Shown here one piece after another: positions 3,851-60,095 of a DNA stretch of 64,000 nt. The position numbers and the translations under genes are program-made. Origin of the DNA: Spirochaetaceae bacterium (GTDB taxonomy: Bacteria; Spirochaetota; Spirochaetia; DSM-2461); assembly GCA_965224705.1 (NCBI GenBank), contig OZ245056.1:1920001-1984000 (forward strand). The letters run 5' to 3'. The notes under the pieces are model-generated. The model did no database searches, was not told the origin of the DNA, and saw nothing but the letters and a program-made list of their open reading frames with translations. Every line of letters starts with the position of its first letter. Position 1 is the first letter of the stretch.

Positions 3851-4002
3851 GGGCACCTCTAAAAAACACTCATTCCGTTTCTGGCTTGATCCTTACCACT
3901 GCGCTGCCAGAATGCTCACGCAGCTACGCTCCGCTTCTGCCGCCTTGTATCAGTGAGAAATCTCTGTGTCAGATTCCGAAAGAGGGTTTTTTAGAGGCGC
4001 CT
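3851..4002. mobile_element. MITE-like repeat family A (intact copy)
   Basis: TIRs GGGCACCTCTAAAAAAC / GTTTTTTAGAGGCGCCT, 4-bp TSD TAAT (3847-3850, 4003-4006), non-coding; homologous in reverse to 22710-23545. Confidence 0.85.
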
Positions 4003-7949: not shown

Positions 7950-8332
7950 AGTGTCAGAAAGCTTGTAGAGGTCTAATCCTATTTTATCCCGGTCAGGTGA
8001 AGATTCTTGATCAGAATAGTGGTTTTATACTATTTCTACTGGAATTTGAGAAGTTAGAGTTTTATATAATTCGGATCCATACCGAGATGGAAGCTTGTAA
8101 TTGTTTTTCTATATGGTATTATCTGCACTAGGAGCCTGTCGGATTTACGTCTCACGGCTCGATTTTTGCCCTTTTTCCCTGCTGCTGCGTTGCCAAAATA
8201 CTCACGTAGCCCAGCTACGCTCCGTTTTTGTCGCCTTGCATCAGGAAAAAATCATCAAAAATCGCCTCGAAGCCTTAAAATCCGACAGACTCCTAGATGG
8301 GGTCACTGCCCATTAACAAGCTTCCTGACGCT
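7950..8332. mobile_element. MITE-like repeat family C with a nested family B element
   Basis: Ends AGTGTCAGAAAGCTTGT / ACAAGCTTCCTGACGCT; same ends at 55901-56013. Confidence 0.65.
8131..8293. mobile_element. MITE-like repeat family B
   Basis: TIRs GGAGCCTGTCGGA / TCCGACAGACTCC, flanked by TA in CTAG context; closely similar copy at 59747-59909. Confidence 0.85.
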
Positions 8333-18997: not shown

Positions 18998-19078
18998 GTT
19001 TTAGAGTGTCGGCGGGATACCATAACTGAAAGTGCCGCCTTGCCTTGCGTCCAGAACCAGGCTAAACTAAAAGTCATC

Positions 19079-20842
19079 GTGAAAAAGAATCTGACTCAGG
19101 GCATCACCGATTTCAAGAAATTCATCGACAATGATTGCTACTTTGTCGATAAAACTCATCTCATTGGGCATCTTATCAATGACCCCAGTGAGGTACACCT
19201 GATCACCCGCCCCCGGCGCTTCGGCAAAACCCTGAACCTGAGCATGATCCGCTACTTCTTCGAGGCCCTCCCACCGGGCGGAGATAGCAGCGATCCACCA
19301 CCCAATGAACCCTTGTTCAATGGTATGTCCATCGCGGAACATCCCCAATACCGCGAATACATGGGGAAATACCCTGTGATATACTTAAGTTTCAAGGACG
19401 TGAAAAAATCGACATATCAAGATTGCATGACTCTTATCAGGAACATGCTCTCTGCGGAATATCAACGGCATGAGTATTTACAAGATTGTGGTGTCTTGAA
19501 TGACAGAGAACGGGTACAATTTGAGAAAATATTGTGCAATAAGGGCAGCGATCAGGATTGCGAACAATCCATAGCCTTTCTGTCTATATGGCTCAAACGC
19601 GCCTACAACCAACCGGTCTACATCCTGCTGGACGAGTACGACACCTCCCTGCATGCCGCCTACACCGGCAGCTTCTACGATGAAATGATTGCCTTCATCC
19701 GCAGCTTCATGGTGCAGACCTTCAAGGACAACCCCAATTTGAAGCAGGCGGTGGTCATCGGGATACTGAAGGTGGCCCAGGAGAGCATCTTCAGCGACTT
19801 CAACAATCCGGCGGTGTCCACCTTGCTCGATCCCGAAATGGAGGACTGTTTTGGCTTCACGGAAGCCGAAGTAGAGACCATGGCCGCCCACTTCGACATG
19901 GAAAACAGGATGGACGGCATCCGGGAGTGGTACAACGGCTACATCTTTGGCGGAGACACGGTCATCTACAATCCCTGGAGCATCGTCAATTACCTGCGAA
20001 AGCCTTCCGCCGGACTGCGCCCCTACTGGGTGCACACCAGCGACAACAGACTCATCAAGAAAGTACTGCATCTGGATAAGAGGAACAGCCGGGAAGTTAT
20101 TGAGAAACTGATCCGGGGAGAGGAGGTCAGGCGGGAGGTGGTGCTCAACATTGCCTATCCGCAGATAGAAAGAAACACGGATGCCGTGTGGAGCTTTCTT
20201 CTCCACGGAGGCTATCTCAAGGCTGACGAGCGGCAGCAGATCCACACCTTCATCACCTACCGGCTTGCCATCCCCAATCTGGAAGTGAAGGTGGTCTACG
20301 AAAAGGTTGTCCGCGACTGGCTGGAGGAGGACGTGGAGATAAGCGATTCCTTTCAGTCCTTCATCCGCGGCATTCGCGAGGGAGATACCGGTCTGATTGA
20401 AGAGGGTCTCGGAGACATCCTCTTCGGCCTTGCCAGCTATCACGATACGGCATCACGAGGCAGGAGGGAGGAAAGGAAACGGACGGAGGGCTTCTATCAC
20501 GGTCTGGTGCTGGGAATGCTGGCCTACCTGGGCGGTGAATACATGGTGGAGAGCAACCGCGAATGCGGCATGGGCCGTCCCGACATCGTCTTGATCCGGC
20601 GCGATACCGGCTCCGGACGGCCTGCCAGGGTTCTTCTCTTTGAGTTCAAACGGGAGGATGCCGGTGGAACAACGCCTCTGGAGCATCTGGCGCGGGAGGC
20701 ATATTGCCAGGCGGAGCAAAAATACCTTGCGGGCCTGAGAAAGAAGTGGCAGCCGGAGGAAATCCTTGTTCTGGGGGTGGGCTTTCGGGGCAGGGAACTG
20801 GCTCTGGAGGGGGGAGGGGAACTCCCCGGTTTTGAGTCGTGA
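19079..20842 (+). CDS. AAA-ATPase-like + PD-(D/E)XK nuclease domain protein, copy 2
   Basis: Same motifs; tandem paralog. Confidence 0.9.
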   Translation: MKKNLTQGITDFKKFIDNDCYFVDKTHLIGHLINDPSEVHLITRPRRFGKTLNLSMIRYFFEALPPGGDSSDPPPNEPLFNGMSIAEHPQYREYMGKYPVIYLSFKDVKKSTYQDCMTLIRNMLSAEYQRHEYLQDCGVLNDRERVQFEKILCNKGSDQDCEQSIAFLSIWLKRAYNQPVYILLDEYDTSLHAAYTGSFYDEMIAFIRSFMVQTFKDNPNLKQAVVIGILKVAQESIFSDFNNPAVSTLLDPEMEDCFGFTEAEVETMAAHFDMENRMDGIREWYNGYIFGGDTVIYNPWSIVNYLRKPSAGLRPYWVHTSDNRLIKKVLHLDKRNSREVIEKLIRGEEVRREVVLNIAYPQIERNTDAVWSFLLHGGYLKADERQQIHTFITYRLAIPNLEVKVVYEKVVRDWLEEDVEISDSFQSFIRGIREGDTGLIEEGLGDILFGLASYHDTASRGRREERKRTEGFYHGLVLGMLAYLGGEYMVESNRECGMGRPDIVLIRRDTGSGRPARVLLFEFKREDAGGTTPLEHLAREAYCQAEQKYLAGLRKKWQPEEILVLGVGFRGRELALEGGGELPGFES

Positions 20843-22596
20843 GTTTTGTGAAAAAGAAACTGGAACAGGGCATCACCGATTTCAAGAAATTCATCGACAA
20901 TGATTGTTACTTTGTCGATAAAACTCGTCTTATCGCATATCTTATTGACCATCCCAGCGAGGTGCATCTCATCACCCGCCCCCGGCGCTTCGGCAAAACC
21001 CTGAACCTAAGCATGATCCGCTACTTCTTCGAGGCCCCGCCACCGGGCGGAGATAGCAGCGATCCACCACCCAATGCGCCTTTGTTCAATGGCATGTCCA
21101 TCGCGGAACATCCCCAATACCGTGAATACATGGGGCAGTATCCGGTGATTGCGCTAAGTTTCAAGGATGCCAAGGGGGCCTCGCATACGGAGTGCATGGA
21201 AGTCATCAGGGAAATGCTGTCGGCGGAATATCAACGACATGAATACCTGCAAAACTGTGAAGTGCTGCACGAAGCCGATAAAGAGTTGTTTTTTAACATA
21301 TCGAATAGAAAAGGCACGGATCAGGACTGTGCGCAATCGATAAAACATCTCTCCTCCTGGCTCAAGCGCGCTTACAACCAACCGGTCTACATCCTTCTGG
21401 ACGAGTACGACACCCCGCTGCACGCCGCCTACACCGAAAACTTCTACGATGAAATGATCGCCTTCATCCGCAGCTTCATGGGGCAGAGCTTCAAGGACAA
21501 CCCCAATTTGAAACAGGCGGTGGTCATCGGGATACTGAAAGTGGCACAGGAAAGCATCTTCAGCGACTTCAACAATCCGGCAGTGTCCACCGTGCTGAAT
21601 GATTCCATGAAGGATTGTTTTGGTTTCACCGAGGCGGAGGTGGAGGCCATGGCCTCCCATTTCGGGCAGGAATCCCGGCTGGACGGCATAAGGGAGTGGT
21701 ACAACGGCTACATCTTCGGCGGCGACACGGTCATCTACAATCCCTGGAGTCTCGTGAGCTATTTCAGAAACATCAAGGACGGGCTTCTGCCCTACTGGGT
21801 GCACACCAGCGATAACAAACTGGTAAAAGAAGTGCTGCATCTGGACAGAAGGAACAGCAGGGAAGTCGTTGAGAAACTGATCCGGGGAGAGGAAGTCAGG
21901 CGGGAGGTGGTGCTCAACATTGCCTATCCGCAGATAGAAAGAAACACGGATGCCGTGTGGAGCTTTCTGCTCCACGGAGGCTATCTCAAGGCTGACGAGC
22001 GGCAGCAGCTCCACACCTTCATCACCTACCGGCTTGCCATCCCCAATCTGGAAGTGAAGGTGGTCTACGAAAAGGTTGTCCGGGACTGGCTGGAGGAGGA
22101 CGTGGAGATAAGCGATTCCTTTCAGTCCTTCATTCGCGGCATTCGCGAGGGAGATACCGGACTGATCGAAGAGGGACTCGGAAACATCCTCTTCGGCCTT
22201 GCCAGTTATCACGATACGGCATCGCGGGGCAGAAGGGAGGAAAGGAAACGGACGGAGGGCTTCTATCACGGCCTAGTGCTGGGAATGCTGGCCTACCTGG
22301 GCGGTGAATACATGGTGGAGAGCAACCGCGAATGCGGCATGGGCCGTCCCGACATTGTCTTGATCCGCCGCGATACCGGCTCCGGTCGGCCCACCAGGGT
22401 TCTTCTCTTTGAGTTCAAGAGGGAGGATGCCGGTGGAACAACGCCTCTGGAGCAGCTGGCACGGGAGGCGTATTGCCAGGCGGAGCAAAAATACCTTGAG
22501 GGCCTGAGGAAGAAGTGGCAGCCGGGGGAAATCCTTGTTCTGGGGGTGGGCTTTCGAGGCAGGGAACTGGCTCTGGAAACAGGCCGTGATGAATGA
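20839..22596 (+). CDS. AAA-ATPase-like + PD-(D/E)XK nuclease domain protein, copy 3
   Basis: Same motifs; start GTG 20839 (GTGA overlap) or 20848. Confidence 0.9.
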   Translation: MSFVKKKLEQGITDFKKFIDNDCYFVDKTRLIAYLIDHPSEVHLITRPRRFGKTLNLSMIRYFFEAPPPGGDSSDPPPNAPLFNGMSIAEHPQYREYMGQYPVIALSFKDAKGASHTECMEVIREMLSAEYQRHEYLQNCEVLHEADKELFFNISNRKGTDQDCAQSIKHLSSWLKRAYNQPVYILLDEYDTPLHAAYTENFYDEMIAFIRSFMGQSFKDNPNLKQAVVIGILKVAQESIFSDFNNPAVSTVLNDSMKDCFGFTEAEVEAMASHFGQESRLDGIREWYNGYIFGGDTVIYNPWSLVSYFRNIKDGLLPYWVHTSDNKLVKEVLHLDRRNSREVVEKLIRGEEVRREVVLNIAYPQIERNTDAVWSFLLHGGYLKADERQQLHTFITYRLAIPNLEVKVVYEKVVRDWLEEDVEISDSFQSFIRGIREGDTGLIEEGLGNILFGLASYHDTASRGRREERKRTEGFYHGLVLGMLAYLGGEYMVESNRECGMGRPDIVLIRRDTGSGRPTRVLLFEFKREDAGGTTPLEQLAREAYCQAEQKYLEGLRKKWQPGEILVLGVGFRGRELALETGRDE

Positions 22597-22709: not shown

Positions 22710-23545
22710 GGGCACCTCTAAAAAACCCGCTTTCGGAATCTGGCGCAGAGATTTTTCACTGATACAAGGCGACAAAAACGGAATGTGCCCGGCATGAACA
22801 ATATCCAGCGGGTGAGAATCCCGCCAAGGCCCTGAAAGGCGGAAATTTGTAGAAAAAGACAAGGGTGTCCGAAGAAAGATAGACAACGCATTGAGAGTAT
22901 GCCTGCTCACCAGATGGAGATTGTCTTTCCCAATGAGGAATCTGAAGGAAGTCTAAGTCAAAATATTCGCCTGAACGAGAGTGAACCTTTGAAAGGCAGT
23001 TATGGAGGATGAGATACCTTCGGCTATTGAAGTCCCATATCCTTTACGTAAAATCCATAATTGTGCAGAAGGCAGGCGGGATATGAAATGGAGATTGGTC
23101 TTACCCGGGGAGGGCCTGTGGAATGGAAACTGTGGAACAGCGCCATAAGATTTCCTAAGCCGTGCAGGGATGCAGGGTAATCTTCCACCGGCAGTCAGAA
23201 GAACCCAGGCCGATCAGACGGGTGGAGATCCCGAAACCGGGAGGAGGAGTGAGACTTCTGGACAACTTCAAGGAGCCCGGCTATGCACAAAGCCTTTCCC
23301 AATCGGTATTTCATTGAAGAACTCGGGCAGTTTATCTATTCAGCCTGAGACTGAAAGAAATTGGACACATGCATGAGGAGCCGTGTACGGACCCGTACGC
23401 ACGGTTCTGTGAGAGGACGGCATCCCTGCTTCCGCAAGGTGCCTCCTAACTCGATGCGTAGCTGGGCTACGTGAGCATTTTGGCAACGCAGTAGCAGTGG
23501 TAAAGATCAAACCAGAAACGGAATGGGTGTTTTTTAGAGGTGCCC
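22710..23545. mobile_element. MITE family A copy interrupted by a group II intron
   Basis: TIRs GGGCACCTCTAAAAAAC / GTTTTTTAGAGGTGCCC; removing 22783-23455 restores the reverse complement of the 3851-4002 element; no matching TSD. Confidence 0.88.
22783..23455 (+). mobile_element. Group II intron with internally deleted RT/maturase ORF
   Basis: 5' end ATGTGCCCGGCATG; domain V GAGCCGTGTACGGACCCGTACGCACGGTTC (23378-23407); domain VI ending CTCGAT; RT remnants PRPIRRVEIPKPGGGVRLL (23204-23260) and PAMHKAFPNRYFIEELG (about 23277-23327). Confidence 0.9.
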
Positions 23546-23916
23546 TTTGTATTCCCGGATGAATTTCCTGGGAGTTCTGGAACAGATGAGTGTGATGGTG
23601 GTATTGCCGTAATTGGCTTCCGGGTTTTCTCTGAGGTAGAGATTTGTGTATATGGAAAGATCGTAAATATCCTGTGCTCTTACGGCATCGCCATATGATT
23701 TGTAGCTGACCAGATTGTACGGCGCGAAATAGTTGAAGATGTCGAATTCTACGCTGGCAGTGTTTTGTTTGATAAGGAGGACATCCAGCCTCTTGGGCTT
23801 TTGAGCATTTCATGTTCCGTTTCAACCAGATATCCGCAAGAGCCGAAAAATTCCCTTGCCTGTCTTTTGAAAAAGGTGTCCAGGGTAATCTGGGCTCTGG
23901 GAAGTGTCTTTTCCAT
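23546..23916 (-). pseudogene. 5' half of Rpn-like gene, frameshifted and truncated at the MITE end
   Basis: Closely similar to the 5' half of 30029-30829; 1-bp deletion near 23790; stops at the MITE TIR. Confidence 0.85.
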
Positions 23917-23967
23917 CGTTTGCAGGATAGCATGATTCTGAAGACCTATCCATACCGGGTTTTTCAA

Positions 23968-25732: not shown

Positions 25733-27702
25733 CCGAAGTTTTTGGCGAAGAAGTTAGTAATTCTCTATCAAAAAAAGATTTACAAATAAATTCTGTGTTG
25801 TTTACTGCTTACACCTCCCTATTCGCATGGGATTGTACTGTACGTTTAGCAACTCAAATACCTTTGTATGAAAAGGATTTAACTCACTTCCCTGCGAGTA
25901 GCAGGGGGCGTTATCCACGGCAGGTCGAATGTCGATGATGGCTACAGCCGAAAGAGAATCAATAAGGGATCGAAAGCTCATCACGGGATATCCTTCTTCG
26001 TTAACTTTATGTTCTGCTTTGTGATTGCCATGAGGTGAACGCAAAGCCTTCCTCACCGGTGAGCTTTGCCTGCTTCTGTCTTGATACTCATCCATAAACA
26101 GCAGAGGTTTGAGTTTTTCCCTCATAGCAAACTCTACGTAATAGGCAAGCAAGCACAGATAAAAGTGCCCTTTAACCCGACTTGCAAGACGATGATGAAT
26201 GGGACGGGCCTGTAGTCCGGCTATTTTCAAGCAGCGAAACACTTCCTCCACTCGTTGAAGATTTTTGTAGTTCTCCACACATTCTGGTGTTTGCATTCTA
26301 TCGCTTTCCACATTGGTACGCAGGATATAAATACCGTCACAGGCCTCTTCCTGTCCGATGGATTCTTCGTTTCGAGAAAACAAAAAGTCATCGTCCCTGA
26401 TCTCTACATTGAAATGCTTGCCCATTTTATACTTTCCAATAATTCGGCCATAGCGTTCGGCAATCTTCACTTTGCCCCGTAAAGCTCTTTTTCCCCTTCT
26501 TGCGGCTTTCTGGATGGCCCATAATTTATCTTCTGCTGCACTCAACAGTTCCCGCCGTTTGTTCCTGCGTTCCTGAGCAAGATAAGGATTGCGGCACACG
26601 ATAAGCCGTTCGCCGGGAAAGTCTTCGCTGTGTATTTCCCATAAATCCGTTTCATCAAAGAGTTCCGGGGTAATACTCTGGGCAGTAACCAATTTCTTGA
26701 CCGCTGGAGCACTCAAGGCTCCAAGCCATCTTATCCAATCCCCATTGTCAAGCATCTCTTCTTTAATGTTTTTGGCTGTAACCATTCCCCGATCACCGAC
26801 AAACACTATTGATTTGCCCAGCTTCCTTAACTTTTCAAGCTGCTCTGCTACGGTAGTGCCGTCACTTCTATTGCCCTTAAATACTTGAGCTCCAACCGGA
26901 ACGCCGTATCGATTTGTCATGACACCTAACTCTATTTGCCGTTTACCCCTTTTCCCGTCCCGGCTATATCCGTATTCGGCAAGTGAACAGTGAGAACCTT
27001 CATACCAAAAGGAACTCAAGTCGTACAGCAAGATCGTATCATCCTTGAGATGACGGTTTCTTAATCGCTGTTCAATACTTCCCCACTGCTCTTCCAGATT
27101 ATCAAGTGCTCCGTAAAGATCAGCAGGCTTGACTTCTCCCAGACCAAGAATGCGGTTCAAAGAGCTATGTGTATTCTTTTCATCAAGAGCATAAGCGGTC
27201 GCAAGCTTTGATGCAGGGTGAATAATCCTCTGGGCGATCATTGCCTTAATCAGCATCAGGTTATCAGGAGACACACCTTTAAGAAGACTCTCTATGTTGA
27301 GTTGTTTCATGGTTTGAATGATGGCCAGAGAGTGTCCGTGGGCGTAGGATCGTTCAATCGTGAACATTTTATCCGGAGAGATAATTCTTGCTCCCTTAAG
27401 CAGAGCATGAAATCCTTCTCTAATTTCTGCCGGCCAATCAGTGAGATTGGCTATTGTTGTAGTCGTGGGTTTTCCATTGACGCGGGTTGATTTTCGAAGG
27501 AGCCAGCAGCCTGGAGAGTTTCTATTTTTGATATACTGGATATACATGTGCTGTATTATAGCATGTATTATTTATATTTCAAGCTATTAGTAATAGAAAA
27601 ACCCGTATTACATGCGTACATTTTCCGTCTTTTTCAGTGGTATACTCTTGTAACTTTTTTTCAGAAAAAGAAATTAACTGGATTTTGCGCCAAAAACTTC
27701 GG
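25733..27702 (-). mobile_element. IS1634-family insertion sequence
   Basis: Perfect 15-bp TIR CCGAAGTTTTTGGCG/CGCCAAAAACTTCGG; 6-bp TSD CTTAGA (25727-25732, 27703-27708). Confidence 0.92.
25802..27547 (-). CDS. IS1634-family DDE transposase
   Basis: LYDLSS.WYEG, YGYSRDGK, FVGDRGM, DG.Y.LRTN, YK.L..VE..FR.LK, RPIHH....RV.GH. Confidence 0.92.
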   Translation of the reverse strand: MYIQYIKNRNSPGCWLLRKSTRVNGKPTTTTIANLTDWPAEIREGFHALLKGARIISPDKMFTIERSYAHGHSLAIIQTMKQLNIESLLKGVSPDNLMLIKAMIAQRIIHPASKLATAYALDEKNTHSSLNRILGLGEVKPADLYGALDNLEEQWGSIEQRLRNRHLKDDTILLYDLSSFWYEGSHCSLAEYGYSRDGKRGKRQIELGVMTNRYGVPVGAQVFKGNRSDGTTVAEQLEKLRKLGKSIVFVGDRGMVTAKNIKEEMLDNGDWIRWLGALSAPAVKKLVTAQSITPELFDETDLWEIHSEDFPGERLIVCRNPYLAQERRNKRRELLSAAEDKLWAIQKAARRGKRALRGKVKIAERYGRIIGKYKMGKHFNVEIRDDDFLFSRNEESIGQEEACDGIYILRTNVESDRMQTPECVENYKNLQRVEEVFRCLKIAGLQARPIHHRLASRVKGHFYLCLLAYYVEFAMREKLKPLLFMDEYQDRSRQSSPVRKALRSPHGNHKAEHKVNEEGYPVMSFRSLIDSLSAVAIIDIRPAVDNAPCYSQGSELNPFHTKVFELLNVQYNPMRIGRCKQ

Positions 27703-59746: not shown

Positions 59747-60095
59747 GGAGCCTGTCGGACTTACGCCTCACGGCTCGATTTTTGCCCTTTTTTCCCGCTA
59801 CCGCGTTGCCAAAATACTCACGTAGCCCAGCTACGCTCCGTTTTTGCCGCCTTGTATCGGAAAAAAATCATCAAAAATCGCCTCGAAGTCTTAAAGTCCG
59901 ACAGACTCCCAGGAGCCTGTCGGACTTTAAGACTCACAGATCTATTTTGCCTTCTCTCCGCCTTCATTCGTTTTCGCCTATCGCCCGGCACTCTCTCAGG
60001 CATTGCCTGCCTGCCTGCCTATCGGCAAACAGGTCGCCCTGCATCAGGAAAAATCATCGAAAATCGTCTTGCAGTCTTAAAGTTCGACAGACTCC
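59747..60095. mobile_element. Tandem doublet of MITE family B (59747-59909 and 59912-60095)
   Basis: GGAGCCTGTCGGACT...AGT(C/T)CGACAGACTCC twice, separated and flanked by CA; different interiors. Confidence 0.85.

Follow-up and report, generated by a model that had tools for sequence, protein, structure and literature searches.

A decayed IIC-type group II intron in the hairpin core of a MITE, and evidence that related introns entered the same core in two genomes

What does a group II intron recognise when it is found, exact to the base, in the hairpin core of a dispersed MITE, and has its lineage entered that core more than once? The question is raised by the window analysed here (the whole stretch of 64,000 nucleotides), which carries such an intron. 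A review lists three target modes of bacterial group II introns, namely homing sites, terminators, and attC sites (PMC4424553). Throughout, the window copy is called W, the genome of the window G000, and a second genome of the same genus G001; L-numbers denote the intron loci compared.

The intron lies on the + strand at 22783-23455, as an earlier note made from the letters alone had proposed for the MITE core, and Rfam matches bear the proposal out, both for domain I (RF02001 at 22924-23099, 86.6 bits) and for domains V and VI (RF00029 at 23376-23455, 42.5 bits). It splits AAAAACGGA|GCGTAGC, and the uninterrupted junction is indeed present where the note had read it, at 3929/3930, 8220/8221, and 59836/59837 on the minus strand (three matches, versus none in 100 shuffles). 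Genome-wide, the 16-nt core has 123 matches with up to two mismatches, 120 of them empty and three directly following an intron 3' end; together with the empty junctions in the window, the 120 empty matches make the boundaries 22783-23455 exact. From TIR to TIR the occupied element measures 836 nt, that is, a 163-nt MITE plus a 673-nt intron. The host element and its empty counterparts in the window are as follows:

22710-22782, + strand: left arm of the MITE, on the 5' exon side, in the shell with the GGGCACCTCTAAAAA terminal repeat (BLAST of the left flank)
23456-23545, + strand: right arm of the MITE, opening with the apical hairpin GCGTAGC-TGG-GCTACGT
3851-4002, minus strand: empty MITE with the shell of W and a shortened apical hairpin (sequence comparison)
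8214-8229, minus strand: core junction without an intron, the MITE having the other shell (junction match and fold)
59830-59845, minus strand: core junction without an intron, the MITE again having the other shell (junction match and fold)

The earlier note had placed these elements in a single "family A". A common core does unite them; the shells are two, with different terminal repeats, GGGCACCTCTAAAAA at W and at 3929 and GAGTCTGTCGGAC at 8220 and 59836. The large family, with GAGTCTGTCGGAC ends, comprises 133-141 elements (two counts), and the small family hosting W, with GGGCACCTCTAAAAA ends, comprises nine; terminal inverted repeats, many copies, and no ORF mark them as MITEs. A 1605-nt IS1182 element with the same ends and a CTAG duplication is a candidate autonomous partner of the large family, and the core is absent from it; for the GGGCACCTCTAAAAA shell no autonomous partner was found in G000. 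Empty elements are predicted to fold as one long hairpin (z scores of -4.7 and -3.5, and -7.8 in G001), while the third element of the window folds poorly (z -0.96). In this fold an internal loop with an unpaired GGA precedes the insertion point and an apical stem of 7 bp follows it, which agrees with the short hairpin that the note had seen in the 3' exon. The same GGA/GA loop occurs in G001, and the core pattern is found in seven of 14 genomes of the genus, with differing apical stems.

Some features of the neighbourhood and of the MITEs elsewhere are recorded here in their own right. A truncated fragment of a multi-copy gene (23546-23930) starts exactly at the right end of the MITE, which suggests an adjacent deletion. 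The window also holds tandem AAA-ATPase / PD-(D/E)XK genes (19040-22596; PF09820 and PF08011), a family present at many G000 loci, and, on the minus strand at 25802-27547, a DDE transposase of 581 aa (PF01609). At two further G000 loci, L006 (~525300-527600) and L007 (~2210300-2212800), a MITE interrupts an RT gene; we take both genes to be DGR-like from their motifs and neighbours, and one of them comes after a gene with a variable-region-like C-terminus.

Full-length sisters of W, which the earlier note had asked for, are present in G000. Three copies are complete (A, 2037 nt; B and C, 2035 nt each), the others being W, the internally deleted D, the 5'-truncated E, and two fragments, F from the 5' part and G, 37 nt long, from the 3' part. 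Both B and C encode an intact RT/maturase of 421 aa (TIGR04416, with PF00078 and PF08388) that is devoid of an endonuclease domain, and A has one internal stop; beside W there are thus two sisters with an intact ORF and five other broken pieces. In long blocks the identity between copies is 94-98%, so their spread in G000 is not very recent. Copy A stands at locus L002 (G000 1067400-1071300) in the company of a truncated tyrosine integrase, a fragment 3.5 kb from A, and of a DNA methyltransferase-like ORF. This locus is possibly a cassette array, and the flanks of A and D may resemble attC sites.

The six 5' junctions available in G000 all end in CG(A/G)A, and comparison of junctions with the intron RNA yields a short target rule, to which two elements of W belong:

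22779-22782, + strand: IBS1, CGGA, formed by the unpaired GGA of the core internal loop and the preceding C
23019-23022, + strand: EBS1, UUCG, in the terminal loop GAUA-CCUUCGGC-UAUU of domain I (Rfam alignment and RNA fold of sister B)

EBS1 UUCG makes four Watson-Crick pairs with CGAA and, with CGGA, includes one G-U pair. The note had suggested TCCG at 22868 as EBS1; that motif stays invariant whatever the target and was rejected, whereas the UUCG at 23019-23022 varies with it. In G001, EBS1 reads CUCU and the 14 5' junctions end in GGAG, GGGG, GGAA, CGAG, or AGAG, mostly GGAG. Covariation extends to L052 (UCCG with CGGA) and, at three of four positions, to L053 and L055; L051 and L101 fit poorly. 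Across sites only 4-5 nt of exon are conserved, and the pairing is by EBS1 with no EBS2-IBS2. The first exon base at the 3' junction is G in seven of seven G000 cases (five distinct contexts) and variable in G001. No intron base covarying with it, as an EBS3 partner would, was found by eye in G000 and G001; the delta base, tried as a partner of this G, fits G000 and fails in G001 and L052. Two further CGAA|G sites come from contigs of other studies: the first lies in a MITE module, and at the second the loose ends fit the loop of a 12-bp palindrome.

The explanation that we consider probable is that an endonuclease-less IIC-type lineage selects its sites by 4-nt EBS1-IBS1 pairing together with foldable palindromes, and that W was inserted and then decayed. 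An RT-encoding intron of this kind would have spread in G000, preferring palindromic DNA that can fold when single-stranded and having no need of a terminator T-run. MITEs would provide most such hairpins in G000, and W would have entered the core of one of them before it decayed. The core may have been entered repeatedly because IBS1 lies unpaired there, in an internal loop that immediately precedes the 7-bp apical stem. We infer that DNA structure drives site choice; the class C literature further suggests, by analogy, that targeting may take place on single-stranded DNA at the replication fork. As for a replication-strand bias, the GC skew of G000 was too weak and patchy to place an origin.

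Insertion in the core is seen in G000 for W, E, and the 3' side of D, in three MITE subtypes. Of the remaining copies, B sits in a module internal to the large family, F occupies the hairpin loop of a third repeat family, and C lies in a long unique palindrome spanning the junction; the flanks of A, of G, and of the 5' side of D have no MITE match (those of A and D are unique). Counting native flank pairs and orphan halves gives seven to ten events in G000, three of them at the core. The core accounts for 103 of the 11180 CGRAG sites in the genome, a share against which three of nine events would have a P of 6e-5, but for 103 of 1306 such sites (7.9%) once long ORFs are set aside, when P rises to 0.02-0.03 for eight or nine events and to ~0.04, by hand, for ten. 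Insertions in some MITE make up five of nine events versus 18.6% of non-coding CGRAG sites (P 0.014). All of these enrichments are limited by small counts and by kin that are not independent. In G001, homologous core junctions account for four of 14 5' and two of eight 3' junctions, with 188 homologous cores empty, and the core is entered one base later (GGAG|T) than in G000; the enrichment there has a P of 0.001-0.02 if the background share, roughly guessed, is 3.5-8%. Ten of the 14 5' junctions in G001 lie outside the core, several of them with no strong hairpin.

The notion that the repeat hairpin serves as a reusable landing pad thus holds in part: the core has been reused in G000 (three events) and in G001 (four of 14), and it is not exclusive, more than half of the insertions being elsewhere. 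Unrelated targets do occur, and an enrichment at the core persists that is modest against the non-coding background. There is modest support for a preference of the lineage, in two genomes, for a conserved MITE hairpin within a broader preference for palindromes. With P values of only 0.01-0.04 once the non-coding share of cores and MITEs is allowed for, and with many G001 sites devoid of a clear hairpin, it could also be that structure plays no part: any match to EBS1 would be taken, genic insertions would be selected out, and MITE cores would simply be the commonest matching non-coding sequence. We regard this as unlikely, though the most serious of the alternatives, since the same core position was used in two genomes despite different apical stems and a different EBS1, and since sites outside MITEs (C, the L033/L037 site, and L051) are palindromic too. 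Moreover, on either side of the junction the clade flanks are predicted to fold more stably than the background (P ~0.005 each, from rows that are not independent).

These sites are not classical terminators. The last 10 nt upstream contain 0-3 T in 24 clade junctions, versus 2-8 in 29 canonical IIC junctions (one of the 24 rows, L101, begins 2 nt into the intron, and the contrast is unchanged), and upstream stems average -5.5 kcal/mol in the clade, -9.5 in canonical IIC introns, and -3.5 in the background; P values for stems and T-runs are overstated because the rows include kin and repeated targets. By T-run and stem comparison, then, clade sites are not classical terminators, and the contrast with terminator-targeting IIC introns that the earlier note had drawn is borne out. 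The window site itself has neither upstream stem nor T-run (65th percentile of background), and in an 80-nt fold it is unremarkable (26th percentile); some clade sites do have upstream stems, and L053 and L055 carry their hairpin upstream, in the classical geometry. A perfect stem of at least 5 bp starting at +1 or +2 was found in four of 19 distinct clade 3' flanks versus ~2% of the background, in a test defined post hoc; the 19 remain of 25 rows after exclusion of six AGC rows whose domain V is of another form (L133, L024, L025, L034, L038, and L041). At L051 (2064-2090), one of these four, a close relative (74% aa) stands directly before a terminator hairpin and T-run, which it thus entered from the 5' side. 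It is conceivable, if doubtful, that a widespread, hitherto undescribed lineage with an AGC triad reads a hairpin that starts at or straddles the insertion site, a geometry opposite to that of the IIC complex of known structure, and that it adjusts its 4-nt EBS1 so as to follow the conserved MITE core across species.

Whether repeated cores mean repeated entry depends on how far introns and MITEs have carried or exchanged one another. Copy D of G000 is a chimera, flanked by unique DNA on its 5' side and by a MITE on the other, and the flanks of L037 and L033 appear swapped, which indicates recombination between intron copies. At L089 (1829-9508), two direct intron copies lie 6.7 kb apart with flanks seemingly swapped, as if the segment had entered a MITE through intron-intron recombination. 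Such shuffling would suit a history in which the core was entered once and the inserted intron then copied, through transposition of the MITE or through recombination or gene conversion between MITEs, so that the repeats would not be independent homing events. We think this rather improbable, given that core insertions occupy different shells and subtypes, that the copies differ by 2-6%, and that neither of the two intact composites, W and B, has a matched target duplication. In the GGGCACCTCTAAAAA shell, six of eight intron-free elements have a 4-bp match and W has none; carriage of the intron by the MITE, which the earlier note had raised, is accordingly not supported.

The sister intron of G001, at 71-75% DNA identity to that of G000, shows nesting the other way round. 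Ends of the small MITE family lie within its domain I, at the same position (~135) in seven of 14 copies at different targets (L088, L081, L046, L080, L083, L086, L087). Seven ORF-less copies with one common deletion junction likewise occupy different targets (L089, L040, L046, L084, L087, L081), and no intact RT is left. Gene conversion would account for this pattern, as would spread in trans of introns that take the MITE along as cargo; the G001 introns look like an orphaned non-autonomous family in which the MITE inside the intron is possibly carried along.

W is a different matter, as its lesions show:

22783-23455, + strand: decayed IIC-type group II intron W, 673 nt long, with 94-97% identity to the sisters of 2035 nt and an A in place of the initial G
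22924-23099, + strand: portion of domain I matching RF02001 (group-II-D1D4-3; Rfam)
23207-23210, + strand: junction of deletion 1 (positions 425-876 of sister B missing)
23210-23261, + strand: RT island RRVEIPKPGGGVRLL, 52 nt, equal to B 877-928
23257-23349, + strand: junction of deletion 2 and maturase C-terminal stub up to the stop codon (B 929-1837 missing, TCTGG microhomology)
23378-23407, + strand: short domain V of 30 nt with an AGC triad, identical in sequence to that of the sisters
23410-23455, + strand: domain VI together with the 3' end, one A having been added at the bulge (23448-23449)

The RT island and the maturase stub are both there, as the note had described, and the two deletions together remove ~85% of the RT gene. 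Through deletion 1, W has also lost its start codon (B 664), a stretch that would be the domain IV leader, and the latter half of an RF01998-like region that the order of domains in IIC introns would make domain III; sub-threshold RF01998 matches lie at intron positions ~375-460 in L033 and L051. The note had considered domains V and VI intact, which holds for domain V and not for domain VI, where two stem/loop substitutions accompany the extra bulge A. The AUGUG 5' end that it had called non-canonical is present, as a private G1A change; the other five G000 5' ends read GUGUG.

An active ORF-less intron would be expected to have an intact G1, domains I-III, V, and VI, and several copies with the same deletion. 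By sequence the G001 ORF-less subfamily agrees with this profile, its domain III-like region included, and W, the only G000 copy with its deletions, departs from it. Contigs of run X9 contain the same deletion 2 (a 914-nt skip) at a higher depth than the ORF, and X6 and X8 have loose ends there, which suggests a deletion-2 derivative common to related strains, at this or another locus. Among the assembled contigs that make up the RNA run, X8, no whole-intron joint was listed, a result that counts neither for nor against splicing. It is very improbable that W still functions as a streamlined intron that dispenses with an ORF, tolerates a non-canonical 5' end, and is moved by an RT acting in trans, as the note had envisaged, for although its domain V is intact, deletion 2 recurs in related strains, and G001 harbours a spread ORF-less subfamily, W is structurally broken (G1A, the extra bulge A, and half of a domain III region that the G001 copies keep) and has these deletions in one copy alone. 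Judged from its lesions, W is probably a dead relic, neither spliced nor mobile.

W itself is thus only a fossil, and the interest lies in its lineage, which suggests that hairpin reading of the IIC type takes in palindromes of the MITE and REP-like kinds, where the stem may stand across the cut from its usual position. Such reading is directly testable: two sisters retain an intact ORF, EBS1 differs naturally between two genomes, and the empty targets that are defined number more than 100. Introns and MITEs that nest both ways and swap flanks would also offer a route of rearrangement in repeat-rich genomes.

How far does the lineage belong with known introns? The best solved relative of its RT is that of GsI-IIC (6ar1, E 2e-95). 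The RT groups with over 100 clusters (~60% identity), which come for the most part from short contigs, in a clade (support 100/1.0) that stands on a long separate branch, with 38-45% identity to canonical class C RTs and 39% to D.p.I1 of variety g6. The lineage works like IIC, its RT clade taking an unsettled or sister position relative to the class C groups in quick IQ-TREE and FastTree trees with one distant outgroup and only loci with a long RT frame. The domain V pattern was found in none of 400 other genomes of the phylum sampled, in two of 120 around G439, in none of 300 around G440, and in no viral contig sampled; the 5' part of the ribozyme had no DNA match in plasmids. A Pseudomonas domain V match, considered as a clade member, proved on checking to be an ordinary terminator IIC intron. 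A literature search that did not extend to the majority of subscription papers, among them the primary studies on IIC targeting, returned no title or abstract describing IIC introns that target MITE cores; further group II intron papers were also drawn on (PMC11602168, PMC8643678, PMC7306698, PMC3552965, PMC12584367, PMC8919778).

A CGC catalytic triad is typical of group IIC. Terminator-type IIC introns (GsI-IIC, the E. rectale intron, B.h.I1) resemble the lineage in their RF02001 domain I, short domain V, 4-nt EBS1, and endonuclease-less RT/maturase of ~420 aa, but the canonical IIC loci compared have a CGC triad and T-run targets, whereas clade members with RNA examined have an AGC triad, a 30-nt domain V, an RT mostly with FADD, and no T-run. 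The cryo-EM target of the E. rectale intron consists of a stem, a spacer, and then IBS1 (PMC10190682); its stem is 5' of IBS1, while at the MITE core the short stem begins 3' of the site. IIC-attC introns of the S.ma.I2 type also sit inside an imperfect palindrome and may swap flanks by recombination between copies, but their consensus site is TTGT/T in the attC bottom strand (PMC3001079, PMC7923331), as against CG(A/G)A|G here, and the integron-associated intron L135, with a TTGT junction, falls outside the clade. Variety g6 (D.p.I1; PMC4244168) has the same IIC-like RNA with an AGC triad, yet D.p.I1, the one g6 reference compared, sits after a terminator and, at 39% RT identity, does not group with the clade. 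That introns can use the repeats of other mobile elements is already known from RmInt2 of Sinorhizobium meliloti, which targets the inverted repeats of ISRm17 through EBS1/EBS2/EBS3 pairing (PMC4615759); there as here, such repeats are abundant targets met with relaxed specificity, but RmInt2 uses terminal repeats, and the present lineage a 4-nt pairing and an internal hairpin core that is missing from the putative autonomous IS1182 parent.
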